A DNA stretch of 63,574 nt, filler included, from Asterionella formosa (taxonomy: Eukaryota), in assembly GCA_002256025.1 (NCBI GenBank). It is 23 parts of 23 records of this genome, joined end to end, with 100 filler letters (N's around TTAATTAATTAA, not from the genome) between each part and the next. Parts side by side here need not be neighbours in the genome. Positions count along the whole stretch, not along the records: positions 30,519 to 33,180 come from NKIB01014979.1; 22 more parts are not named here. One strand, given 5' to 3'. Every line of letters starts with the position of its first letter. Position 1 is the first letter of the stretch. Positions 10,125 to 50,221 of the stretch are shown piece by piece. Under the pieces are notes generated by a model. It worked only from the letters and a program-made list of their open reading frames with translations, was not told the DNA's origin and did no database searches. Both the position numbers and the translations under genes were made by a program.

Positions 10125-10178
10125 TACTACCGGTAGGTACATGGTATGGTATGGTATGGTATGGTATGGTATGGTACC
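10125..10178. repeat. (TATGG)n / TA-CCGG-TA array
   Basis: TACTACCGGTAGGTAC followed by ATGGT x7 and ACC, directly beside the gypsy LTR end. Confidence 0.85.
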
Positions 10179-10181
10179 GAG

Positions 10182-11006
10182 TGAAGTATCTAACTAGAAG
10201 TAGTAGTATTTGTTGAATATATGAGCTTATTTGTTAATCCTTGTGTGTAACTCGTTCTCCAAGTCGACACCAAAGTATACAATGAGGGTTAGTCGAGTTC
10301 TCTCATTATTGAGTTCTTATACATACATGATATAACACTAACCCTATATACATCTGTATTGATGCGCAAGATCGCTCACTCTCCCACACCAAGGGAAAAC
10401 CTTTTACCTTTGAAAAGGTTTGATGTAATGGATATTAATTCAGTCCGTAGTATGCATAGTTTGTTGAAAAGTAACTGGACCATTGGCATATACTTGAATA
10501 AATAGAATAAGGACCTCGTCCATGGTTATCCAAGGTAGTAGGATTATCCGATAGGATTAAAACCTCATCAACAACCTTGTAATCGCAAGAACGACGACGG
10601 AAAGTATCACGACGTAGTCATTTGTCAATTATCACTTATCGACATTGATATCCCAATATCAATTACATATCTATAATCAAATCATGTTGTAAAACCCATG
10701 TTCCTGGTGAAAATACACAATGTACTATAAATAGTAGCTCGAGCTGCATATGATGCAGCAAACTGGTATCCACAATATTCTGAACTTGAAATTCCTTGAT
10801 TGGAGGATGAGCCTTTAACATGACTTGTACATAGGCTTTTAATGTGTATGAAAGGAATACCAGTAAATTGACCTCCATTGTCATGTATACAACCTTCTGG
10901 ACGGAGATATCCGTCCAACCAATCATTTTTAAATTTCATCGCAATATATTCTGATGTCTTATTATTGATATGTGAAATTTCTGGTAAATTGGTGACTGTG
11001 TTAACT
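10182..11006 (-). mobile_element. Older diverged copy of the same gypsy family: LTR (10182..10378) plus a decayed, internally deleted integrase
   Basis: Clear but diverged similarity to 1430-2350 (KFKNDWL, IHDNGGQF, AASYAARAT), with frameshifts. Confidence 0.92.
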
Positions 11007-12158: not shown

Positions 12159-12353
12159 TGAGCAATCCTGCACATCGATACAGATATATATAGAGTTGGG
12201 GTTATGTCAAATATATCGGAATTCAATAATGAGAGAACTCGACTAACACCCATTCTATACTTTGATGTCAGTTCAGGAAATGAGTTATACATAAGGATTA
12301 ATTAATAAGCTCATATATTCAACAAATACTACTACTTCTAGTTAGATACTTCA
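12159..12353 (+). mobile_element. Ty3/gypsy 3' LTR, copy 2
   Basis: PPT GGGAGAG at 12152-12158, then TGAG...TTCA, followed by CCAGGTACC. Confidence 0.85.
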
Positions 12354-12498
12354 CCAGGTACCTGATGCCAGGAACATGGTATCAGCCTACCGGCGGTACC
12401 TGGTACCTGGTACCAGGTACCGGTAACTGAATTTGTGTGGAGCGATATACATACCGGTTCTGGTACCTGGTACCAGGTACCAGTACTGGTACCGGTAC
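12354..12498. repeat. TA-CCWGG/CCGG/CCAG/CTGG-TA footprint-like array
   Basis: GGTACCTGGTACCTGGTACCAGGTACCGGTA and GGTACCTGGTACCAGGTACCAGTACTGGTACCGGTACC. Confidence 0.85.
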
Positions 12499-12867
12499 CT
12501 TCCTTTGCGTCGTCATTCTTGCTCTATGACATGTGTATTTTAGTGCCGATGCAAGAAAAACAGTGCCGTCATGGTGGGCGATCTGTTCAAATGAATCTTC
12601 ACAAATCATCGTGATCAGTAGTCTAATAATACCGGTAATAATAATGAGAATATTATTTCCGGTACACTTTTGCACTTATGTTCATGAAATAAATAAATAA
12701 ACCTATAAAATGTAAAGTACAAACAAACCATCCACATGCGAAATCTTGATGCTTTTTTAAATATCGCATCTAACGCTTGTCTTATTGCGCGCTTGTTCGT
12801 ACAATCCCTCGTGATGAGCGATCCCCACCACATCTACGAAAAAAAGGCTGGCTCCCTGTGGTCCAAC

Positions 12868-13229: not shown

Positions 13230-13782
13230 AAGCAATGAATTTACCAGGGAAGAGAAGCTCCTCTGTAATAAATTTAGATCCGGTGTAGAGGAACGGAGTG
13301 CCAATGAGGAGGAAGAACAACGGGTTGATTCTCAACACAGTCGACAAGAGTTCGAAACCAATACCAAGCCAAACACTTGTGAGAACAATAATGGCGGGAA
13401 GGTAGAGAAGATTTGATCTGAATTGGTCTTCTTTCAATGTGACAGTGCAAATTCCAGTGTCGATCTAGCATTTTGGAGATGTTGAGACTGCAAACTTCGA
13501 TCCAGTTTCCTTGAGCTCCGTCTTCAATGCGTCAAACTCAGCATCTGGCATCATCGGTTCACCTTTCAAGTATGCTTTCGGTTCATGACAACCATGTCAG
13601 ATCCGTTCCATTGCAAATCTTCCTTCAATAGGTCAAACTCGTCATCCTTGAGCATTTGCCTTCCAGTGGCATACCGGTAGTAGGACTGAAGCGCGTCCAG
13701 AAAGATACGCTCCTTTTCGGCTACTGTGAGACGAATGAGTTCCCCACTTTCCGGATCGACGACACAGTATTCCTCGTCAGGA
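13230..13782 (-). pseudogene. PGRL1: PGR5-like 1 (PGRL1) homologue, pseudogenised fragment
   Basis: EKERIFLDALQSYY..G..MLKDDEFDLLKEDLQWNGS...AYLKGEPMMPDAEFDALKTELKETGS..PKC followed by TM segments matches the PGRL1 tandem motif. It has a frameshift near 13575 and an in-frame TAG near 13467. Confidence 0.85.
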
Positions 13783-13976: not shown

Positions 13977-14156
13977 GAGGATGAATTTATGCAAGTACCG
14001 GGTACATACCGGTACAATGAAAAAGACTGCTCTGAGATATGCACTCGCACCTTTGTTCATATTCCAGTACATACATAGGATGTGGTACCGGTAGGAGTAC
14101 ACAGAAGGACAAACAGTAAGGTTGCTGGCATGATACTAAAAATATAGCACCTGGTA

Positions 14157-16052
14157 CCAGTCAAAAACTGCTTAAGACCACTATATTACCCCGTTTTTGG
14201 GCTAAAATTAGAAAAATGTTCAGCCGACCCCATTTAAAACCCTTTGAACAGAGGTCAACTAATGCATGCAAGCACTAGATAAATGAATCATTTTAACAAT
14301 TGGAAGGATATATGTTGCGATATCGCACTTTTTAAATCGTTGATTTTGCACTTTAGTGGTCTAAAACAATTCATATACTTTTTATCATGTATATGTACTT
14401 TTTAATGGTAAATGGTTAAAAGATATTACCTCGTTTTCCATGATTTCTCCAATTTCTTATGTCAACTGACGTCGATTTATTGTGCAAACAACAACACATA
14501 AATCACTTTTCCATAATCACAACTTCATCCTCGTCATCCCCTGCAGCTGAGGCTGATGGTGGCAGTATTGCTACAGCAACTGGGACTGGTGCATCGCCAC
14601 CTCTGATTGTATCAACATACTCGGTAAGCAGTAGTTGTTTCGTTGCAGGTTATGCATGGTGCATCGCCAGTTCGTTTGTACCACAACACGATTGTCTTTG
14701 TTTGCGCCACCGTCCATTTTTGTGGCCGTTTGTTGAGAGCTCTGATCGCTTGCACCTCGTTCAATGTTGCTTTATAATCCATAACTTTCTTATTCGCTTT
14801 CTCACTCTCCTTCTACACTGCTCTTCTTTTCTCCTAGTCATGTCGTCCAGTGCTTCCGTTCCCAGTTTAAAGCGTCCAGTCGCCACACGAAGTCCTGCCA
14901 TATACCTTTTATTTTGTGCGATCGCCAATAGTGCCAACTGGCAAGCCATCTGATCAAGATTGATGCCGACCACATGCTTGCGGTGCTGGAGCAAGTTTCA
15001 TGGTCTCAATGGAATTTTTTGTTTATATTTGTCCCCCCCCCCCTTCTCACCGGAAAGTTGTGTTTGTTGAGTCTCATGCTGTTCCGGTCTATCGGCTAGA
15101 TTATTGTTTCTCACACTGCTGTGCTTATCTTCATTACATGTAACTGGTGTCAAAGTGGACGAAGCAGTAGTGGTGGCTCTGGTTCCAAAGGTAAGTGTAC
15201 TGCTAGTTTCGATTTGTTCTGCTGGGGAACAATCCAATAGCACTATAGAATTCAAACCCTCTACTACTAGATCTTTCTTGTCATTATTCAATTTCTTCAA
15301 AGGGTACTTCACCATGTCTTTTGTTTGCCACGTTATTGTGTCAACTTTGTCTGCTACTAATAATCTAGCTAGCAATAGCAAAACTTGGTAAATCAACTCC
15401 TCCACTGTTAGCCTTTCTAGCGTCTACTTCTCTGACATTGTTGTTTAGAACAAGCTTTACTTTATCCTTATCTAGAGACTTAAAAATAACTCTGTACTTG
15501 CTCAAGGTTTGGCACTTTTTCGGTACATTATACTAAGTTGTAAGATCCAGAGAAATGAAAATGTGATATATTGTGATGGTCTCAAGAGCATTTCAGGATG
15601 CATCGATGTTGACAGTACAAAATCACTAAATTGCTATGGTGCGAACTAGTGAGTATGTTTACATTGGGATGTTGCACACAATCGCGCCGTAATCATAAAA
15701 AATTCACCTCAAGAAAAGCGTTAAAGGAAGCTATGTTAATTTGGAGTATAAAATTATATATTATCGTATATTAAATATAAATGTCGGCCCAGCTAAACGA
15801 GGTAATTTTGTTTTCTTCCAATGTCGTGCCTCACTCAACATTTTCGAAGTCGTTTATCTCACGAACTGGAACACAACATCGATCGGGCTTTAAGACATCC
15901 TAAGATATATGTAGATGCGTGAAACAAATGACTTGTTTATAGTAAATATTTTCGTATTGCTAAAATTGAAAAAGTTTGTAGTACAAAATGTAAGATTACC
16001 CTGTCATAGTGGTCTAAGTAGTTCATAGTGGTCTAAAGCAGTTTTTAACTGG
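14157..16052. mobile_element. Complete non-autonomous TA-targeting TIR DNA transposon (Tc1/mariner/pogo-like), 1896 bp
   Basis: Left end TA|CCAGTCAAAAACTGCTTAAGACCACTAT; right end ATAGTGGTCTAAAGCAGTTTTTAACTGG|TA. The TIRs are 28 bp with 2 mismatches and TA lies on both sides. Extra TAGTGGTCTAA copies occur at about 14354 and 16007. Confidence 0.9.
14560..14960 (-). pseudogene. Decayed ORF inside the TIR element, possibly a transposase C-terminal region
   Basis: Frame-joined reading ...FKLGTEALDD..K-rich..VQAIRALNKRPQKWTVAQTKTIVLWYKRTGDAP.PATKQLLLTEY. The assignment is inference only. Confidence 0.35.
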
Positions 16053-16398
16053 TACCTGGTACCTGGTAACTGGTAAACGGTACCAGCACCGGGATAGTGG
16101 TGTCTATTTTATGTTTGGCTGATCTAACGGTTACCGGTGCGTATACTGGCGAAAATTTGCGTCCGTGTCATGTACCGGTACCAGGGTACTGGTACCAGGT
16201 CCTGTCCGTGAATGCGGTGTACCTGGTATGCTATTATCATGTGGCTGGTGGGTCAGTGATGTTTCCTTCGCTCATGATCATATATGCGGCCATTATTGTT
16301 TGGCAGAATGGTGATGGTCGTTATACATCATCGGCCTTGTCTTTTTTATAGAATACCTGGAGACTATACATAGGCTGTACTGCGTGCGCCGATTGACA

Positions 16399-25193: not shown

Positions 25194-25400
25194 GAATCAA
25201 GCAAAAACGAAACTAGTCCTGATGAGGAATACTGTGTCGTCGATCCGGAAAGTGGGGAACTCATTCGTCTCACAGTAGCCGAAAAGGAGCGTATCTTTCT
25301 GGACGCGCTTCAGTCCTACGTTGCCACTGGAAGGCAAATGCTCAAGGATGACGAGTTTGACCTATTGAAGGAAGATTTGCAATGAAAGAACGGATCTGAG
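25194..25400 (+). pseudogene. PGRL1: Second PGRL1 fragment, preceded by an intron-like acceptor
   Basis: PDEEYCVVDPESGELIRLTVAEKERIFLDALQSYVATGRQMLKDDEFDLLKEDLQ*. Near-identical to the reverse complement of 13597-13782. A pyrimidine tract plus TAG lies at 25191-25193. Confidence 0.85.
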
Positions 25401-25558
25401 CATATACCGGTATATAGCTAAAACAAGGAAAGACGACACAACAATGAACGTGATGGCTGGTTGTTGAGGATACCTGTAGTATGTGATATGCATCAATCCA
25501 TCATGTCACAAATCATATTATAGTGATGTACATATCAACGCATCTGTATACTTAGATC

Positions 25559-26050
25559 CTATCCACTGTATAATACTATCATATTAACTGTTGACTTTAA
25601 CTGTATACATTAAACGACATACACATATATTAATTAACATACTTTGTGATTGCTTGATTTATTTTCTATGATGTCTTGGTAACACTTGCGTACATATTTT
25701 ATCGTATTTTATTGTCATTGTATTATTTTTGCATGATCATATTTTGATCAAAATTATATCATAAACATTCTATAAAATCATCATAGTTTTAGGATCAATG
25801 TATCATAGCTATGTGATGTACTTTATTCAATATTATGTATTATACTTTGGTGATGTATGCATCGATGTAACCTTATCATGATATCACAGTATCATCTTAT
25901 CAATCATGATGAGATGATTGGGAAGCAACTGTATTCTGCATCGTGCTACAGGGTATATTATTATATCACGCAATTTAGTAGCGCAGTCACTCCGCCTGTG
26001 ATGTACAAAAGTCGACTGTGCAGGTACCGGTACTCAAACGCTAATCAGGC
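25559..26050. repeat. Dispersed repeat family B (longer form)
   Basis: Both ends match the reverse complement of 12868-13066. Confidence 0.8.
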
Positions 26051-26893
26051 TTGAGGCAACGGACAGTGGTTCCAACGAGCGAATGATGATACCACGAGTA
26101 CCAATTTTTCCAACGAAAGAACTTGTCTCTCTTTTGATGAGGATGACACGGAGACGGACACCGACTTTTCCAGGAGCAAACAACAATGAAGAGACCTACT
26201 TGTCGCTCTATTGATGGTAACAAAGATGCGGACAAGTTCAACAGTGAATACAAGAACAACATACCAATGAAAACAAGTCGACAGTGGCTGTGTGTACGCA
26301 AACGCCAAGCAGGTTTGAAGCAACGGACAATTCCAACAAGCAAATGACGATACAGATATCAAATTCTTCCTACGAGCAAACAACAATGAAAAGAGCCACT
26401 TGCTTTCGCTCTCTTGCTTGATGGTATCAAAGATGCGGACAAGTTCAATAGTTAATTCAAGTACAGTATGCCAAATGCAGAAACGAGCGAGCGATATGAA
26501 AATGAAGTGCATTCTAATCAGAATCATTCTATAACTATAGCTATGTGGACAGTAGTCTGTTACGCACATTTTCGTATCTCCTTCTATGCTAAATCGAAAT
26601 AGTAGATGTAGTATCATGTGAGAATTGAAAATTTCAACGAGAACAAGTACCGGTAGAATGTGTTTGTTTACGGGTTGATTGGCGAGATTGTCATGCTGAA
26701 GTGGACGAAACGGATATACTTTGTGCGCAAAATCGGAAGTTAGTAGGGTTTATAATGTCGTTTTTTTTCTCCGTTCTGAATGATTGGACCATTAATAGCA
26801 GCAGCATCATGATCTACTAAACTATCAAGGAATAAACCATTATCATAGTCATCGGCATCAAAACAAACTGTTTGAATGAAATCGATTGAACTT

Positions 26894-28608: not shown

Positions 28609-30803
28609 ATAGATAGGGAACAGGAATTCCGACGTTTTCTTTCTTGGCTTGGCAAAGGATGACTATCAGAATAGGGGTTCCATATTCAGTACTTCAGATC
28701 TCTCAGAGTAAAGGTTCCAATTTTAGTACTTTGGAGGCCACATGAACCTCTTTCATCAGGACATTCATTTTTGACGGGTTTTGAAAGGCAAGCTTGTAGC
28801 TGCAGCAGTGTGGCACAGCAAGCAGTATTGTAATGAACGATGATTATGATAGGATTTTTTGGTTCTTGGTGCTGTGCAATTGCGAGCCTCAGCCCTCAAA
28901 TAGCCCATACACACATGATACTTAGGGAAATTTCATCAAAGTGCATAAATATAGATTCCATCAGGGTGATGACTATCTGTGTATAATGCCACGAGAAAAC
29001 AACTACCAGGAAAAAATGGCTGTTTGTCCAATACTACCCTCAAATGATCAAACTTCACTCCAAGTTCAACCTAGAAGTGCTATGTCTGGATGCAATTTTT
29101 GGGGCCACCGGGTAGACCCTGTAGGACTAGCATTAGCATAAACCCTAGACCTATGGTATATAATATTTTGCGCCTGGATTGGCATGTTATAATCACGTCC
29201 ACCATGTTGTTAGTATTATTCTGTTGCTTTACTCAACAATAGTAGAACATCCTCCTGTGCTGCTTCAAATAGCTTTCTTTCCTTCATGAGTTGCTAGCGC
29301 TACTATTAAACACCGGAAGCGGCATGGGACGACACAATTTGCTTTATATCTGAACTTTTTGTGTTGGGCACGGAGATCCACACCTACATGACCAATGGTT
29401 TCATGCTCTTGAGCTTGATAGTGGGCAAGCTGGAGTTGAAACTGTACAGGAATGTCTCAAATAAGATCATATAGTAGTTGCAATGAAGATACAACAACGA
29501 TTTCACTCCCATTGCTGCGCAGAGGACTTCGATTTCATGTTCATCATGAATGAATGCAACGATGGTAACAACGAGATTGCGGATGCATGTGTACATAAAC
29601 TTTATTCATATGTGTGTTATTTGTATATTTTGTACTGGTAGCCAGAATTATTTTGTACCGGTAGCTACGATGGCTACCCAATGTAGTTTCATGATGTATC
29701 CAGCCATATGTAGGGATACGGTGTTAAATTATAAACTGGGAATGAGCTGAAGTTAGACTTTTGCCGAAATACCGGCCTACTGTCCGTAAATTTCTACGAA
29801 AATCAGCGTAAGTGTCCGGTAGATATCTGATGTTGACGACTCCAACCCACGAACCGTTATTACCCGGTACTGTATTGATCACGGTTCTCGTGTCTCCGTG
29901 TGAGCCAACGACGACTCGATATGCAGTCACGCGGCTCGTTTACCTTGTAGTGGGCAATAGCAAATTACATGCACGGGACTAATAACAATACCGGCATACT
30001 TGATGGCTCAACGCAGGCTTTCGCGGCACCAAATTGGGGTCATGCAAAGAACGGCGTACGTTTGGAAATAGTTCTGTCACGCTGCACTTTAGGAAGCATT
30101 TTGAAAGAAACCCAGGAGGACTAAAGTTACAGTATATATATCATCAATGTACATACCGTTTATGTTTATGTACTATGGTACCTGGTACGTGGAAGCACAA
30201 ACAACGGCGCATGGCTATGCTGCCATTGAAAATTCATTTAGCTGGCGGTAACTAGCGCTACCTGCTACATGCTGGTACTTTGTGCACTGTGCCTGCATCT
30301 ACATTCTTCAACGGCCGATGACGAGGAGGGGAACACGGATTGCACGCTTACGTTCCCATTGCTATCTCTTATGTATACGTCATATCAGCTATCAGGTGTC
30401 ACACTTTACTCTCGTATANNNNNNNNNNNNNNNNNNNNNNNNNNNNNNNNNNNNNNNNNNNNTTAATTAATTAANNNNNNNNNNNNNNNNNNNNNNNNNN
30501 NNNNNNNNNNNNNNNNNNTGGGACGACGAGCGACAGCAGAGCTGACGAAAGTAATGGACGAGCCTCCCACTGTAGCGATTTGCGGCCTCTTGGGATCGCA
30601 CCTGGAAGGCATGAGGTATTTAGCTTTGGACACAACGGAACACTGCGATTTCGGATAGCACTTACAGCTACAACGACAAGCGGCGATCCTCGCCTCTGCC
30701 TTGGCACGGGGTTGTCAGCGACAAGAGCTTCATTTTCATTCAAACTAAAATTCACATTGGTGGCACTAGAAGCATCAGGGGATGTCATTGTCATGGTACC
30801 TGG

Positions 30804-33180
30804 TGAAGTATCTAACTAGAAGTAGTAGTATTTGTTGAATACCGGGTATATGAGCTTATTAATTAATCCTTATGTATAACTCATTTCCTGAACTGACATC
30901 AAGTACAGAATGGGTGTTACCGGGTAGTCGAATCCTCTCATTATTGAATTCCGATATATTTGACAAAACCCTAACTCTATATATATCTGTATCGATGTGC
31001 AGGATTGCTCACTCTCCCACACTTGGGGGAAAACCTTTTACCTATGAAAAGGTTTGATACGACGAATATTAATTCGTTCGGTAATATGCGTAGTGCGTTG
31101 AAAAGTAACTGTACCATTGGCATGTACTTGAATAATAGTATAAGGACCTCGTCCACGATCATCCAAAGTAGTAGGATTATCCAATAATATTAAAATCTCG
31201 TCACCCACTTTGTAATCATAAGATCGACGACGGAAATTAGCACGACGTAAATGTTCGTCAATTATCACTTGTCGACGTTGATGTATTAATTGTAAATCTG
31301 TAATCAAAGGAATATTTAATATCAAATCACGTTGAAAAACCCATGCTCCTGGTGAAATACGTAATATACTATGAATAGTACTAGCTCGAGCTGCATATGA
31401 CGCAGCTGCAAAACATATATCCACAATATTTTGGGCTTGAAATTCATTGATTGGAGGATGAGCCTTTAACATAACTCGTAGACTATTGCTGATAGATTGA
31501 TGTACCGGTAAACGTTCACAGATAGCATTTGCTTGTGGATTCTTTGCTTACTGTGGTAGTCACATCTTTGATTCCATTCAATACTAACATGTGTAAGAAA
31601 GGAGCACCAGTAAATTCACCTCCATTGTCATGTATACAACGTTCTGGATGGGGATATCTGGCTAACCTATCATTTTCAAATTTCATTGCAATATATTCTG
31701 ATGTTTTATTGGTGATACGTGAAATTTCTGCTAAATTGCTTGGGGACTGTGTCAATACAAGTTAGAGCACGAAATTCAATCGTTTGAGCAGCCACTGTTA
31801 TCTTCCATGGACCAATTAGATCTACTGCGACTTCTGACCATGGTAATAATAATGCATTCCTGGGTGGAAGTTCACCAAAACCAGTACCAGGTAATTTTGT
31901 ACGCTGACATGCTTCACATACTCTTACAATATGTTCCACTCTTGCTTTTAATGTAGGGTGATAAAAATGTGTAGCAATTGTAGCATTTAATCTTGTCATA
32001 CCCACATGAGCTAACATCTGATGATACCAATTAATAATAGGATCCAATAATGATGTAGGAATAGCAATACGCCAAGTATCTCCTGGATTCTTCACAAAAC
32101 ATATTGAAAATATATCATGAAAATTGATAGAAGGAAATTTTAATGGATGTGTTTGTTGATTGAGAATCAATTGTATATCCAGCAATTGTCTATCATGCAT
32201 TAAATGATAATCCAGAGGATATTGAATATTGTCTGTCAAGATGGGATGATTAAGGAAACATGTAAGCAGAGGTTCATCATCTAATTCAATTGAAAAAGTA
32301 GAAGAAGAAAATGATGTTGGAGATTTCGGTCCAATATCAATATCATCCTCCACCAAAGACTCAAGCCTCGGGAGGCGAGAGATGGAATCTGCAATAGCAT
32401 TGTCAGTCCCTTTCACATAGTGAAAAGTAGGATGATATTCTTCAATATAAAGTCTCCATCTTAGAACACGTTGATTATGTAAAGTATTATAAATAAGATT
32501 TCGATGATCAGTGTGAACATGTAGAACTGCGCCCAATAACATAGAGCGAAATTCTTTGAAAGTTTCTACCACAGAAAGTAATTCTTTTTCAATAGTAGTA
32601 TAATTCTTTTGAGCAGCAGATAATTTGCGAGAATAATAAGCAACTGGGAGATCATTTTGAGATCATTTTGCATAATGACCGACCCTAGCTAATTGATAAT
32701 CAGAGGCTGTGTATTAAAAAAAAGGTCATATAGCATGACACTGGCATGAGATGAATAAGTACCAGCTATGGTATGTATTAATTGGGAAGTCTCATCAGAC
32801 AAAGAAATACTTTGAGGCATAACCCGTTCATGTATTAAGGATAATGATCCTCCACTATCGAATAAAACTCGTAGTATTTTATGTATCGGTATATTATCCA
32901 CCAATTTTGGCGCTAAAAGGGACATCGGAATCAAATCAATTGATGCTAATATATCCTTAGAAGTAAAACAGGAAACCGGAATTGGTCCCTGATATGTATG
33001 TGGAACATCATGTCCATCAATACAGTTATATAAATCCCGCGTTACATTAACAGCGGTATCCATAGTGTATTCAACCTGTAAATAAACAATATTATTCAGG
33101 TGATGACTAACGTGAGATATACTCAACGAGTCATTATAACGCTATTATCGCACATACCTCTGTAATGGCGATCAGCAATC
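30804..33180 (-). mobile_element. Gypsy copy 4: protease region, RNase H, integrase, 3' LTR (30804..31011); RT deleted; frameshifted
   Basis: Protease motif VLFDSGG; RNase H motifs EKELLSVVETFKEF, HTDHRNL and NAIADSISRL. Integrase and LTR are about 98% identical to copy 1 by manual comparison. Confidence 0.93.
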
Positions 33181-35948: not shown

Positions 35949-37240
35949 NNNNNNNNNNNNNNNNNNNNNNNNNNNNNNNNNNNNNNNNNNNNTTAATTAA
36001 TTAANNNNNNNNNNNNNNNNNNNNNNNNNNNNNNNNNNNNNNNNNNNNTCGATGTTCCATACATGCCATCAAGACTAGTCTTGTTCTTATGTTTGCGATC
36101 GTCTTATCAGCTAAAGCAGATGTTGTTGATCAGTTGGCTGGTTGACAGCGGTTGAGTCTCCTCATGAAATGACAGGAATGTCAATATGTATACCCGGTAA
36201 ACTGTACGTGCCGGTAGCTAATGGACAACAGAAATCATCCAGATTCTTCCTCCTTCTTGCTTGGGCTGACACCTGAAAATGGTGCCGCGTCTCAAATTTT
36301 GTCATCATACCGGTAGTAGGAGTGTGGTACGGTACTTACTAACTATGTAGGGACGAGCATCATTTACATAATGTATTTTATATTATTATTAATTAAGAAC
36401 GTACCGGTAAATAGCACCGGTGCGGTACTCCGAGTACCGTAGGACCGGTAAGTATGTTGAAGCAATGCTAACAAACACAAACTGGTCACCTGCTATACCA
36501 CCTGATTACCATGTACCATATTGTGTACTTACAGACAAGCAATCCTTTGCCACATGCCTCCTCGTTGTTCTACCTGGGCACGTTTGCACGAATGGGAGAC
36601 CTGGCTGTTGATTGGCATTGTCGATCAACACACAAGGACACCTAACAATCCAGCGGACTGCTTAAACCTGGTACCAGGTATGGTTCCAGTACTCTATTGT
36701 ACATCGATACGCGATACCAGGGAACTCCTTCTGTGGTACCAGGTACAATAAAATAACACTTGCATCGATGATTCAAACTTCTCCGTGGCCATTTTCACTC
36801 TTGCGACTTTTTCCGGCTAAATTGCCCTATTGTGTGGCTTGCTATAAGCTATTGACGCATGAATATATTAAATACTATATACAAGCAAAAAAAAAAATTG
36901 GCAACTACATCTCAAATTTTTTTAGAGCTTTTTCGATTTCACCCTACATATGGCTTCTACGGGTATCTCGAACAAAACGCAGATCATGACCCATTTTTCT
37001 TCGAATCACAAACTAGTGTACCGGTATTCTCAACAAGTAGGATATAACGTCATCAATTCTATCACGACTTGATAATGACGTAGGTATGCTAATTATTTCG
37101 CATAAAAAATGTTGATGTTTAATTTAATTAATGATATGTTTTACCAGCACATAAGTAATATTGTCCCTCAACATAACATCACACATCAGTATCATACACC
37201 GGTACAGGTAGCATGAGTCGCACGTACTCAACGGTACTCA

Positions 37241-37335
37241 CCAGCAAGTTGCGGTCATTTTGCTTCACTAACATTTTAATCTGCGATAAAAATAGCTAAA
37301 TCTTTAGTTTCAGCAAAATTACCGCAACTTGCAGG
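37241..37335. mobile_element. 95-bp MITE-like hairpin
   Basis: CCAGCAAGTTGCGGTCATTTTGCT ... AGCAAAATTACCGCAACTTGCAGG|TA: 24-bp arms with 2 mismatches. The left flank is CA rather than TA. Confidence 0.7.
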
Positions 37336-37554
37336 TAGGTACACCTGCCTGGAAGGTCCGGTGATCAGCGAATTGCGCGCACTATATACTAAAAATTCCA
37401 CGTAGCGGTTTCAACCTACCGGTACTTCATTAGAAGTCTGTCCGGCTCACCAATTCCGAAATGATGAAAATCTCAAATTATTTCAATTTATTTAGATTAC
37501 CTGTAATTGTTACAAACTTTCAAACGGAAAAGCGCTGCCACCTTTCACCGCAGA

Positions 37555-37990
37555 ATCGCTGACTACCAACTTCAACTTGCTGACTGCAGACTTCTTGTTG
37601 CTAACTGCTGACTTGATTTGCTGAAAATTTGAAATATTCACTGACTGCTGACTTTGTTTGCTGACTGCTAACTTCGACATGCTGACATAGGAAGAGACTG
37701 ACTACCGTTACTGGTGTACTAATCGTGTCTACTTTTCATATTAGAATAATGATGGAAATGCATCATCTGGTTGTTGTTGGGATACTAAAAGTGACATTGA
37801 TGCCAAAAAAAAATTCATTGCTATCTACTTTGTGATATTGCTACTACCATGTACTGGCACTATCATAAAATGCTGACTTCAACTTGCTGACTTCAACTTG
37901 CTAACTACTGACTGCTGACTTCATTCGCTGAAAATTTGAAAAAATTGCTGACTGCTGACATGAAATCGTTGACTGCTGACTTCAAGTTCA
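37555..37990. repeat. Two clusters of (GCTGACT)-based degenerate repeats
   Basis: TGCTGACT/ACTTCAACTTGCT units at about 37558-37690 and 37870-37988, each containing GCTGAAAATTTGAAA. Confidence 0.75.
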
Positions 37991-38816
37991 TTTTGACAAT
38001 GAAATGAGTAACGGCTTAATGTCTATGTAAATGACTATTTAAAGAATATCGGAGTGGCACAAAATTTAGGGGTTCGACAATTTTTGGGGTATACCCCTTC
38101 CTTTTTCTCGTATGTGAATCAATGAACAGAAAACGAGCAACCTGCACGCTATGTGCACTGATTACCGGACCTTCCTGGTCCTGTACCCTGGTACATGGTG
38201 GAATTTCTTGGACGACACCACCGTATGCTGCAAGGTTCCATTGCTCCGTTGGTAATCATTCTACCAAAATTTGGCAGTACCGGGACTACCGGTATACTAC
38301 GTTTTAGAATTTTTGTCTTTCTCCATACCATATTTTCATCACGGTCAAGGAAGGAATACCGGACAGTACTGACCTGTCCAGAGTACCGGTAGAACACTCC
38401 CGGAGCCCTATCTTAAAGGAAAATACTACATTATCCAATAATGTACTGGTATATTTTGCTAAATTGGTTGGTAGGGAATAGTTGGAATCATGGAATCAAG
38501 AATTACGGAAGCATTCAACCCAACAAATATCTGTGGGGTGCATGATATCATAAAATATGATGAGAGAGATGACTTCTCGATTCTTGTTGATTTCCTTCTC
38601 ACACTTATCTTGACAACAGGATCGTTTTTGTCCCTGTTTACTGATCCACCATGTTCTCCATCCTTTCCCGTCGTGCTCTCTCCAATCCTACGGCTTTGGT
38701 CTTCACGTTCCGCACTNNNNNNNNNNNNNNNNNNNNNNNNNNNNNNNNNNNNNNNNNNNNTTAATTAATTAANNNNNNNNNNNNNNNNNNNNNNNNNNNN
38801 NNNNNNNNNNNNNNNN

Positions 38817-41149
38817 CAATCTTTGTGGGAAGTGTACCAGTAAAAGTATTGGAATACAAATATAGATAATTGAGACTTGCCAAGAGTCCAATCTCTGTGG
38901 GAATTGTGCCAGTGAAAATATTTGCAGACAAAACTAGATAATTGAGACTTGTCAAGAGTCCAATCTCTGTGGGAAGTGTGCCAGTGAAAGTATTGAAAGA
39001 CAAATCTTGATTATTGAGACTTGTCAAGAAACCAATCTCTGTGGGAAGTGTGCCATTGAAAGTATTGGAATACAAATGTAGATCAATGAGATTTGTTAAG
39101 AGACCAATCTCAGTCGGAAGTTTGCCAGTAAAAGTATTGGAATACAGATATAGATAATTGAGACTTGTCATGAGTCCAATCTCTGTTGGAAGTGTACCGC
39201 TTAACTTATTAGGACCCAATGATAAGAATGTTAAGCTTGACAAGGGTCCCAGCTCAGTTGGAATATTTCCAGTCAGATCATTACCATTTCGAAAGTTTAA
39301 ATGTCCTGTTATCAAAAAGTCTGTCAATCATTTGCTGAATTCCTTTGTCAATCAATTTTTTCCATTTACTTACGTAGTTTTGTCACTTTAGGCCAAATTG
39401 AAGTGATATTTCCTGACAATAAAACATTGTCACCAAAGTCCAATGTAGCTGGCTCAGTAGGAAAAATCAAAAATTAAAAATTCAAGTTTCAATAATTCAC
39501 ACTGATCCATCACAACAATTCTTATCCTGAACTTACAAAGATTGCTCATTTTCTCAAAAAAAGATGGTAAATTTTCAATGAAATCTGCAGAGCAATTTAA
39601 GCTCTCTTTCAAAAAGAAATTAAGAAACAGAGAAGGTTATAAAATATCTTAAAGACCTTTTTTCCGTTTTACATGTCACTTACCAATGTTTGTTAGCTGA
39701 CTGAAGCTTATAGGTAGTTCAAAAATTGAATTGTTGCTAAAGTCAATGTGGACTGTTTTTTGAAAACACAGTAAAATCAAAGGGTCAGATTGCATGGATG
39801 TTTTGGCAAAATTTGTTTTCAGTAGATCTGTGCTTACTCAATCTTTCACTTAGGACTGCTATTTCTGGAGGAATGGATCCAATAAGTCCTTCTCCACTAA
39901 GTTGCAATGAGGTTACGACTGTTCCATTGCAGCCAATCCCTTTCCAATCACAAAAGTTGTAGTTGCCATATTCATTTGGGCTAATCCATTGCTCATTTGA
40001 CCGAGACAGAGTACTCAGCCATACTTCACCAAATGCTTCATAATAGATTACCGCCAAAACATAGAATTGAAGCAAGTTGAAATCAATTTCAGTACTTTCC
40101 AACCGTGGTATGAGATCTGTTTCTAACCATAACATGGCCCTATTCTGAGATGTGCCAGCAGTTTCAAGTGCTGCACCATCATCAAATGTATGAAAAGCCA
40201 AGAAACCAAACAAGTTTGAAGAAGGGCTTTGTGATGGAGTTTCTGATGGAGTCATTGATGGAATAAGAGATCGTGTAGGTGTTGTTGTGGGTGGGCTAGG
40301 GATTGGTTTAAGTTTCTCCAGCTGGATACCAATAAAGAAACCAATGATGGCAATAAGGCAGCTTATAACGAAAATTACCACAGTTTTGGCCAAGACTCTC
40401 AACAGCTGATGTCGACAATAGGCTTTTCCAATTGCGTCTTGGTCAAAAATAGTAGCACTGGCAATTTCAGGATCAACAACAAGTTCAGCATTGAAGAGTG
40501 CTGCACCTTCCTGCTGGCCTTGTTCATTCCTCATCTCATTGGTGTCAAAATCAGCACTACCATTCGCAAAGGAAAATGTCCTCAATCCCTGTACTGGAAA
40601 CGCACCAGGAAGTGGTGGTGGTGTCACAGCTTCTTGAGCCGGAACTATTGATGAGAGTCCCGTGACAAAGAAACCAGAAGTAAGGTTGTCTTCGTGAGGC
40701 ACCACTGGTATCTCGTGGAAAGTATTGGCTTTTTGGTCTTGTTGTTCAACTTTTGCTGTCTTTGGAAAATTGGTTTCATTGCTGTAGTCAACAGACTTCT
40801 TGGAAACTTTAGGCACTGCTGCCAGATATTCCAATAAATTAGTCCCTTCCAACTTTTCCTCCTTTGCTATTTCTGCAAAAGGGTGGGAATGATATTGTTC
40901 AGCGGTAGCAGGAGAAGCAGCAACTGCATGTGAACTTTGGTCAATAATGTTTTGCAAGTCTTGGAGAGTTAGGATGTCTGATTTTGACATATTGGCAGAG
41001 GTTACATATCTGCTGGAATCATGGTCATCCTTTTCTGAAGATGTGGGTGTCAACTTCTTTTCCATTTGCATTTTGGCACGACTTCTCTCAGCATTTAGGT
41101 GCTTCTTTACGGTGAACGTCAATGCTTCTTCGTCACAATGAGTCAACAA
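38817..41149 (-). CDS. Multi-exon type-II-membrane LRR receptor-like protein (partial)
   Basis: Long N-terminal exon with PGAF motif, a TM helix, a P/T/S linker and an LRRNT cap (FCDWKGIGC). Short ~70-bp exons lie at 39370-39760, followed by plant-type LxxNxFTGTLPTEIG repeats. Confidence 0.88.
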
Positions 41150-49874: not shown

Positions 49875-50221
49875 TTCCTAGCCCTACCCTAACCAACCAA
49901 GCTGGGCCACAGCACCAGATGTTGCAACATGGAGTCCCCCCTCCCCCTGTTTACCAGCCCCAGGCCCTCCAACAGATGTCTCACCAACAATTCAATCAGC
50001 AATACGCCCAAGCACCTCCTCAGCAGCAGAGTATGCAACAACCTCCTCAACAACAGATGCAGCAACAGTACATGCAACAGCCTCCTCAACAACAAATGCA
50101 GCAACAGTACATGCAGCAGCCTCAAAATCAGATGCAACCACAGTATATTCAACAGGTACCTCCTGTTCCCGGACAAGGAGCGCCTCTTTCTCCAAAGGGC
50201 AACCCGTTTGACATGTATTAG
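49875..50221 (+). CDS. C-terminus of a Q/P-rich protein ending NPFDMY
   Basis: MQQPPQQQ repeats and a terminal NPF motif (EH-domain ligand, endocytic adaptor-like). The 5' end is truncated. Confidence 0.7.

Follow-up and report, generated by a model that had tools for sequence, protein, structure and literature searches.

TA-flanked micro-insertions in a gypsy retrotransposon and a PGRL1 gene of Asterionella formosa as putative transposon excision footprints

The window analysed here (the whole 63,574-base stretch of Asterionella formosa DNA) is a pseudo-molecule built from 23 unplaced contigs, arranged in descending order from 2677 down to 2658 bases and amounting to ~61 kb of sequence, with a G+C content of ~38%. 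The contigs are joined by 22 spacers of the form N44-TTAATTAATTAA-N44, found at 2678-2777 and then every ~2770 bases, in which TTAATTAATTAA provides a stop codon in all six frames. Because the window consists of joined contigs, the gypsy copies compared below sit on separate small contigs, and adjacent segments need not adjoin in the genome. Its long uninterrupted open reading frames (ORFs) encode a GH18 chitinase-like protein, a mitochondrial carrier, proteins with WD40, LRR, or armadillo repeats, and gypsy and copia polyproteins. Our subject is a class of very short insertions, typified by TA-CCGG-TA, which we found in one copy of a gypsy retrotransposon (on contig 12) and in a gene for PGRL1, and which may be footprints left behind by a DNA transposon.

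Contig 12 was found in 20 public sequencing runs from 12 studies, many of them labelled as freshwater or lake metagenomes. We aligned to it the Logan contigs from four runs (X1, X2, X6, and X7); X2 and X6 come from studies other than that of X1, and X1 may be the source sample itself. The summed depth of such contigs is taken as an indication of presence and rough proportion only, not of copy number. A metagenome scan with 26 bases from the start of the gypsy long terminal repeat (LTR) yielded 17 loci (L001-L017). Most of L001-L016 read internal region-LTR-internal region, as expected if the assembler collapses both LTRs of a high-copy element; the contigs provide consensus states of the family rather than the states of single copies.

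Gypsy copies and the insertions in copy 4

Self-comparison of the window by BLAST revealed four copies of one gypsy element. Copy 1 lies at 1419-2677 and copy 2, 99.8% identical to it, at 12362-11107 in reverse orientation, while copy 3 (10170-11004) is more distant, with ~82% identity. Copy 4 occupies 30793-32080; over an alignment of 1290 columns, it is set apart from copy 1 by 20 mismatches and by gaps opened at 8 places, in line with the ~98% identity and roughly 20 substitutions given in a first-pass annotation of this DNA. The LTR of copy 4 spans 30803-31012 (GTGAAG...GCTCAC on the plus strand, the coding strand of the element being the minus strand); its boundaries were set from metagenome contigs that diverge at both ends, together with loose run-contig ends at 30803. 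Pol domains, namely, RNase H and an integrase zinc finger, are recognizable at 31709-32662.

Copy 4 carries four TA-flanked insertions, all located exactly where the first-pass annotation had placed them. Two are TA-CCGGG-TA (TACCGGGTA) and fall within the LTR: the first, at 30840-30848, represents a net gain of 7 bases at a plain TA, and the second, at 30918-30926, lies in the same orientation 78 bases away. The other two are found in the integrase-coding part, where TA-C-TA (TACTA, 31379-31383) is a 3-base in-frame insertion and the weakest member of the class, and TA-CCGG-TA (TACCGGTA, 31503-31510) adds a net 6 bases.

In a four-way alignment, the insertions at 30840, 30918, and 31379 were missing from gypsy copies 1, 2, and 3. 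The metagenome copies gave the same answer: the two LTR inserts were seen in none of 15 informative copies, the TAC at 31379 in none of eight, and the insert at 31503 in none of six. At this last site, where the first-pass annotation had reported GA in copy 1, all six metagenome copies read GATG-TA-AACG, so the ancestral site was TA; therefore copy 4 has a clean TA-CCGG-TA, and the GA of copies 1 and 2 is a T>G change of their own. Since the four insertions are absent from the other window copies and from every informative metagenome copy, they are derived rather than ancestral. With 31503 polarised in this way, duplication of a formerly single TA is seen in four events out of four.

The insert at 30840 was also recovered in contigs assembled from X1, X2, and X6, three of the four runs. 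It was one letter shorter in X2 and X6 (CCGG, not CCGGG), and X1 contained three length states; as the G run at 30844 varies among the window and the runs, the exact CCGG(G) length at 30840 is uncertain. The continuation without the insert was far commoner, with loose ends at 30841 in 135 contigs of X1, 24 of X2, and 5 of X7. Over the unique flank and the start of the LTR (30519-30823), X6 showed no differences from the window and X2 showed three. In summed word depth, the part of the contig belonging to the element surpassed the flank by factors of hundreds to thousands, an excess that fits a very high-copy gypsy family.

At 31379, run contigs contained both states, the form shorter by 3 letters accounting for 38% of the summed depth in X1, 39% in X2, 95% in X6, and 100% in X7; the TAC insertion may thus be common to several copies. 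One X7 contig, covering 31447-31638, was 10 letters shorter than the window, which fits a close copy having neither the 31503 insert nor the nearby TTGC described next.

Copy 4 contains two further, mutually identical insertions that do not belong to the TA class: TTGC (TT-GC-TT) at 31544-31547, which shifts the frame of the pol ORF, and TTGC at 31736-31739. Each was found in none of five metagenome copies, and copies 1 and 2 have neither; copy 3 does not contain the stretch around 31544, and it lacks the insertion at 31736. Both states of the TTGC insertions are present in all four runs. The pol frame is displaced between the two, and words resembling TTGC occur a few bases upstream of each. 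The pair may represent a templated repair insertion, or else an event of the slippage or tandem-duplication kind.

The inserted word across the window and in PGRL1

The palindrome TACCGGTA occurs 27 times in the 61 kb, whereas in 100 dinucleotide-preserving shuffles it averaged 0.35 occurrences and reached 2 at most. No other 8-mer in the window is as over-represented (52 times the order-2 Markov expectation), and of the 95 occurrences of CCGG, 27 have TA on both sides. Related words show the same tendency: TACC[AT]GGTA (18 sites, 28 times expectation), TACCAGGGTA or its reverse complement (8 sites, 70 times), TACC[CG]GGTA (5 sites, 27 times), and TACCAGTA/TACTGGTA (20 sites, 7 times). Taken together, the five word classes amount to 78 sites, or ~1.3 per kb (84 sites if a wider pattern is used). 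The words are also dense outside the window: the non-gypsy parts of L003, L010, L015, and L017 (10.2 kb) contain 8 copies of TACCGGTA, plus more variants and arrays.

These sites are unevenly distributed. Five of the 23 contigs have none, and contig 14 (36049-38716), the richest, has 13 in 2.7 kb and no ORF of at least 150 aa. After collapsing of arrays, 29 of 64 sites had a neighbour within 100 bases, whereas 2000 trials of random placement at TA dinucleotides gave 12.9 such sites on average and never more than 28; the four events of copy 4 lie within 670 bases of one another. The partition between coding and non-coding DNA must account for part of this clustering. ORFs of at least 150 aa (~24 kb, overlaps counted) contain just five sites, three of which are one conserved word at the same place in gypsy copies 1, 2, and 4, a scarcity that fits indels under selection. 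An ORF at 26048-26749 that contains TACCGGTA was considered as a second coding example, and was set aside since it does not look like a real protein.

The coding example that did hold is in PGRL1, where TACCGGTA at 13672-13679 (coding strand minus) adds two residues, YR, in frame. The window protein reads LQSYYRYATGRQ, as opposed to LQSY--YATGRQ in 11 of 11 aligned diatom orthologues, one of which is 96% identical; the named matches to the fragment come from Pseudo-nitzschia, Seminavis (where the protein is named 'PGR5-like protein 1A'), Cylindrotheca, Epithemia, and Minutocellus, and mark the DNA as that of a diatom. Judging from these alignments, the two residues are a derived addition, in frame, to a conserved gene. 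A second PGRL1-like contig has the matching site (25315-25330) and does not carry the insertion, as the first-pass annotation had stated. The second PGRL1-like stretch is only ~190 bases long (25217-25403); as it contains an in-frame stop as well as an insertion of 3 bases, it is in all likelihood a fragment of a pseudogene. Its homology to PGRL1 stops right beside another TACCGGTA (at 25405).

All five polarised events in the window are therefore derived, duplicate TA, and share a constant inserted word, and the family of words to which this belongs is enriched.

The words also form tandem arrays. Dense arrays of GGTACC-type units lie beside gypsy copy 2, at 12385-12500, and include TACCGGCGGTA, TACCTGGTA (twice), TACCAGGTA, TACCGGTA, and TACCAGTACTGGTA. 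A (TGGTA)7 run at 10137-10172, which can be described as a tandem array of the half unit TGG-TA, abuts the LTR end of gypsy copy 3.

Gypsy elements themselves sit in such sequence. All nine LTR flanks available, four in the window (30794-30803, 1419-1429, 12352-12362, and 10170-10180) and five from L003, L010, L014, L015, and L017, resemble GTACC[TA]GG. On the left, all five end in GTACC[TG][GA] (...TACCTG for copies 1, 2, and 4 and for L017, ...TACCGA for copy 3), and on the right, the four start with CTGGTACC, CAGGTAAC, CTTGTACCAGG, and CAAGTTG. GGTACC repeats immediately beyond the LTR are likewise seen at loose ends in X1, at 30794/30795 (32 and 27 contigs). With TG...CA as the LTR boundaries, these data suggest a 5-base CC[AT]GG duplication inside TA-CC[AT]GG-TA and hence a target-specific LTR retrotransposon. 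Palindromes of the same kind as the insertions would thus appear to be where the dominant gypsy family integrates, although this is a lead only, no single element having shown both of its flanks.

Other repeats were also noted in the window. The non-coding contig 14 contains a 21-base tandem-like repeat (TTGCTGACTGC...) at 37550-37990, and at the start of contig 15 a 72-base periodic repeat (38817-39195) encodes leucine-rich repeats. A possible telomere at 49875, considered on account of enriched CCCTAAC words, was rejected: there is a single CCCTAACC in a coding-like stretch, and the words come mostly from the gypsy LTR.

A candidate source element and competing explanations

A search for inverted repeats starting right after a TA returned one strong case (2 end matches, 0 expected), namely, a 1.9-kb element at 14155-16054 on the plus strand, which reads TA-CCAGTCAAAAACTGCTTAAGACCACTAT...ATAGTGGTCTAAAGCAGTTTTTAACTGG-TA (CCAGT...ACTGG). 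Its terminal inverted repeats are ~28 bases long and match at 26 of 28 bases, with TA on both sides. On the basis of its termini, this element is a candidate source of the short insertions, or a relative of the source. For the inner ORF, public assemblies yielded 14 relatives similar to it in length and two longer ones (66-91% identity), none of the 14 + 2 showing a Pfam domain. The two longer relatives (260-281 aa) were examined as possible transposases and discarded, being low-complexity and having no Pfam domain. No Pfam transposase was found inside 14155-16054 either, and the element is a member of a diverged, repeated, and probably non-autonomous family.

An array, TA-CCTGG-TA-CCTGG-TA-ACTGG-TA-AACGG-TA (16053-16080), abuts the right end of the element, and each of its units finishes in the letters of the right terminus (...ACTGG). 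The word TACCAGTACTGGTA of the array beside gypsy copy 2 is what five letters of the left end and five of the right end of the element would give; alternatively, it can be read as two half scars side by side.

The first-pass annotation had proposed that the inserted words be compared with the termini of resident inverted-repeat families, and this comparison was productive. We counted, on both strands, all words formed by TA, the first i letters of CCAGT, the last j letters of ACTGG, and TA, keeping those with at least three inserted letters. The resulting grid held 278 occurrences against 54 expected, whereas three control termini showed no excess (16 vs 23.5, 70 vs 65.7, and 24 vs 27.0). The enriched cells were exactly 2+2, 3+2/2+3, 4+2/2+4, and 4+0/0+4; that is, CCGG, CC[AT]GG, CCAGGG/CCCTGG, and CCAG/CTGG all fit the CCAG... 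and ...CTGG ends of the element.

Our preferred reading, to which we assign a probability of about 0.65, is that the insertions are donor-site scars of a TA-targeting cut-and-paste DNA transposon of the Tc1/mariner type, with 5'-CC(AG)...(CT)GG-3' termini. From the sequences we infer excision as the origin of the scars, a two-base stagger, and local hopping. Such an element would insert at a TA and duplicate it. On exit, the transposase would cut ~2 bases within each terminus on the non-transferred strand, leaving the flanks with TA+CC and GG+TA; the two overhangs cannot pair, so end joining would fill and ligate them to give TA-CC-GG-TA. With CC...GG ends, a two-base stagger, and both overhangs kept, the product would be TACCGGTA, the commonest word, and other cut or trim positions would generate TA-CCA/GG-TA, TA-CC/TGG-TA, TA-CCAG/GG-TA, TA-CCAG-TA, and TA-C-TA. 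Each scar would provide two new TA targets and, as cut-and-paste elements tend to land nearby, clusters would form and grow into GGTACC-type arrays. The first-pass annotation had left the choice between excision footprints and direct short insertions; the former part has gained ground, in that the insertions are derived, duplicate the TA, and consist of letters matching the termini of a resident element, and the latter is kept as a rival.

Several observations weigh against an excision origin, or against 14155-16054 as the source. The window has 98 ORFs of at least 90 aa, and in those scanned (all but a few overlapping antisense frames) no DD(E/D) transposase domain was detected; nor was one detected in the 15 of 21 ORFs of at least 90 aa that were scanned from eight of the 17 metagenome loci (37 kb). 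A filled allele opposite a scar was found at no locus, a metagenome scan with a unique 24-mer of contig 14 giving zero matches. Further copies of the ends of 14155-16054 occur neither in the window nor in the 17 metagenome loci, leaving one copy with flanks. This copy could equally well be read as CCTGG-TACCAGT...ACTGGTA-CCTGG, with a 5-base duplication, an ambiguity that arises because the element sits in a CCTGGTA array. The end-letter grid contained no 3+3 (CCATGG, 0 sites) or 4+4 words. Termini of the CCAG/CTGG kind do not supply the additional G or C of the five CCGGG/CCCGG sites, which need one untemplated extra letter or another family. The uninserted PGRL1-like contig reads AC at the site, where a plain TA would be expected. 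Finally, 61 kb of small unplaced contigs is a biased sample, whose repeat content may exceed that of the genome.

The absence of a filled allele and of a transposase, among the window ORFs and metagenome loci scanned, would suit a direct micro-insertion. Here, a transposase or repair enzyme would nick the TA and a fixed short word (CCGG and its variants) would be added with no full cycle of insertion and excision, for example in an aborted or single-ended transposition attempt, or by fill-in after a staggered cut at TA. The great uniformity of the inserted word (exactly CCGG at 27 of 78 sites) would agree with this scheme, as would the two neighbouring events of copy 4, which share the same odd CCGGG in the same orientation. 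However, we know of no enzyme that adds a fixed tetranucleotide, and the longer variants (CCAGG, CCAGGG, CCAG, and ACTGG) track the termini of the resident element, as predicted by excision and not by an inserter of a fixed word. We regard direct micro-insertion as unlikely.

The CCGGG/CCCGG sites, unexplained by CCAG/CTGG ends, raise the alternative that the insertions are by-products of a mobile family other than 14155-16054, either one with CCC...GGG or CCGG ends or an activity linked to gypsy. The position of all nine gypsy LTR flanks in GTACC[TA]GG-like sequence would suit such an origin, as would the existence of a second TA-flanked inverted-repeat unit, at 37235-37341. Against a gypsy-linked activity, LTR elements are not known to us to excise, the LTR ends here are TG...CA rather than CC...GG, and the micro-insertions duplicate 2 bases, not the ~5 expected of the integrase of this family. 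On balance, an origin from another family appears rather improbable. The unit at 37235-37341 is 107 bases long, with 31-base inverted arms (87% complementary) and GTAC on both sides, and one further copy of its end adjoins gypsy copy 1, at 1230-1248; it looks like a Stowaway-type miniature inverted-repeat transposable element (MITE). A second inverted repeat, at 37348-38178 (CCTGGAAGG...), was discarded as a TA element because its flanks are not TA.

An assembly, polishing, or sequencing artefact might be suspected in small unplaced contigs, the more so as the G run at 30844 differs by one letter between the window and X2 and X6 and has three length states in X1, but the 30840 insert recurs in contigs of three runs, two of them (X2 and X6) from two further studies, and metagenome contigs from assemblies made by others are rich in the word family, so this explanation is very improbable, and so is ordinary slippage or tandem duplication, given that the TA alone is duplicated and CCGG is not present beside the empty sites.

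Precedents, frequency, and meaning

The excision reading has clear precedents. In the portions of PMC6943129 concerned with excision, the cut in the Tc1/mariner non-transferred strand is placed a few bases within the element, and the end joining that follows is said to leave the first or last 2-4 transposon bases between the TAs, as in the TACAGTA/TACTGTA of Sleeping Beauty. The footprints of Tc1, Tc3, Sleeping Beauty, and mariner resemble ours in the duplicated TA and in the form TA + first/last 2-4 transposon bases + TA (PMC6943129). Unlike them, however, the termini here are CC...GG instead of CA...TG, the scars form tandem arrays, and a transposase was found in none of the scanned ORFs. 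We take TACCGGTA to be the two-plus-two analogue of the Tc1 scar TACATGTA. To our knowledge, the density seen here (~1.3 sites per kb, and the top 8-mer) is far above any known for Tc1/mariner families.

For rice, the sections of Roffler and Wicker (2015, PMC4423477) that bear on this point argue that excision of DNA transposons is a major force for sequence diversity, with mariner-type (TA) elements among the active families, and report a clean duplicated target in 8 of 94 excisions, most of the others having deletions or filler DNA. The scars in our window are, in contrast, strikingly uniform and canonical. Stowaway-like MITEs share the TA flanks, as in the 107-base unit described above, and are moved by Tc1/mariner-type transposases, but the micro-insertions (1-6 bases) are too short to be elements. 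The footprints of hairpin-type systems (hAT, Transib, and RAG) are similar in consisting of short palindromic additions at a repaired break. P nucleotides, however, mirror the local flank, whereas here the insert is constant and the flanks differ (GAA-TA-TAT, TGT-TA-GTC, and ATG-TA-AAC), and we rejected this mechanism.

How frequent the process is can be judged in several ways. In the copy 4 lineage, there were 4 TA-duplication events against 13 polarised substitutions over 1247 columns; in the lineage of copies 1 and 2, no TA-type events against 7 substitutions. Across all independent alignable pairs in the window, five TA-type events stood against ~212 BLAST mismatches (~2%), where, besides the 20 mismatches of copy 4 vs copy 1, we counted 1 for copy 1 vs copy 2, 94 + 16 for copy 3 vs copy 1, 53 for contig 1 vs contig 18, 27 for contig 8 vs contig 16, and 1 for the PGRL1 pair. 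Of 28 indels listed, 5 were TA-type events; these were confined to the two youngest pairs, and none was among the 13 indels of the three older pairs. A steady-state estimate, in which a perfect word of 8-10 bases decays at ~8-10 times the per-base rate and the density is 78 sites in 61 kb, leads us to infer, roughly, a scar input of ~1% of the substitution rate per base.

In the first-pass annotation, the events were held to be of the same order of frequency as point mutation and to make up a dominant mutational force. Both statements were too strong: because the events are strongly clustered, a single copy overstates the genome-wide rate, and five events against ~212 mismatches, an estimated input of ~1%, and a share of 5 in 28 indels describe something more modest. 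The process amounts to a notable class of indels, reflecting perhaps a recent or local burst, and is not of point-mutation order genome-wide.

The mechanism proposed would be a textbook one; what is new is the diatom setting and the scale and uniformity of the scars, which supply the top 8-mer, reach ~1.3 sites per kb of sample, build tandem arrays, and include one that lengthens PGRL1 in frame. We found no paper describing such scars in diatoms, in a full-text search that covers few subscription journals. In the papers listed by this search, TACCGGTA appears as a primer- or construct-like sequence and, in combination with 'diatom', only in an unrelated paper on a Phytophthora promoter.

A broader picture can be sketched, in which a low-copy TA family hops mostly locally and its scars are at once the top word of the genome, a leading source of its small indels (among them two-residue, in-frame additions to conserved proteins such as PGRL1), and the preferred landing site of gypsy. 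Taken as a whole, this combination is tentative and rather doubtful. If it were true, one mobile element would be building the integration sites of another.

Should the excision reading be correct, words of the TACCGGTA type in such genomes would have to be annotated as mutational scars and not as regulatory motifs, and transposon excision would be creating in-frame protein insertions in a photosynthesis gene. The data would also point to an LTR retrotransposon with a sequence-specific target. Cut-and-paste events by the tens of thousands would then be recorded naturally in this diatom as uniform and recognizable scars, from which the rate of transposition, local hopping, and the fidelity of end joining would be measurable from sequence alone.

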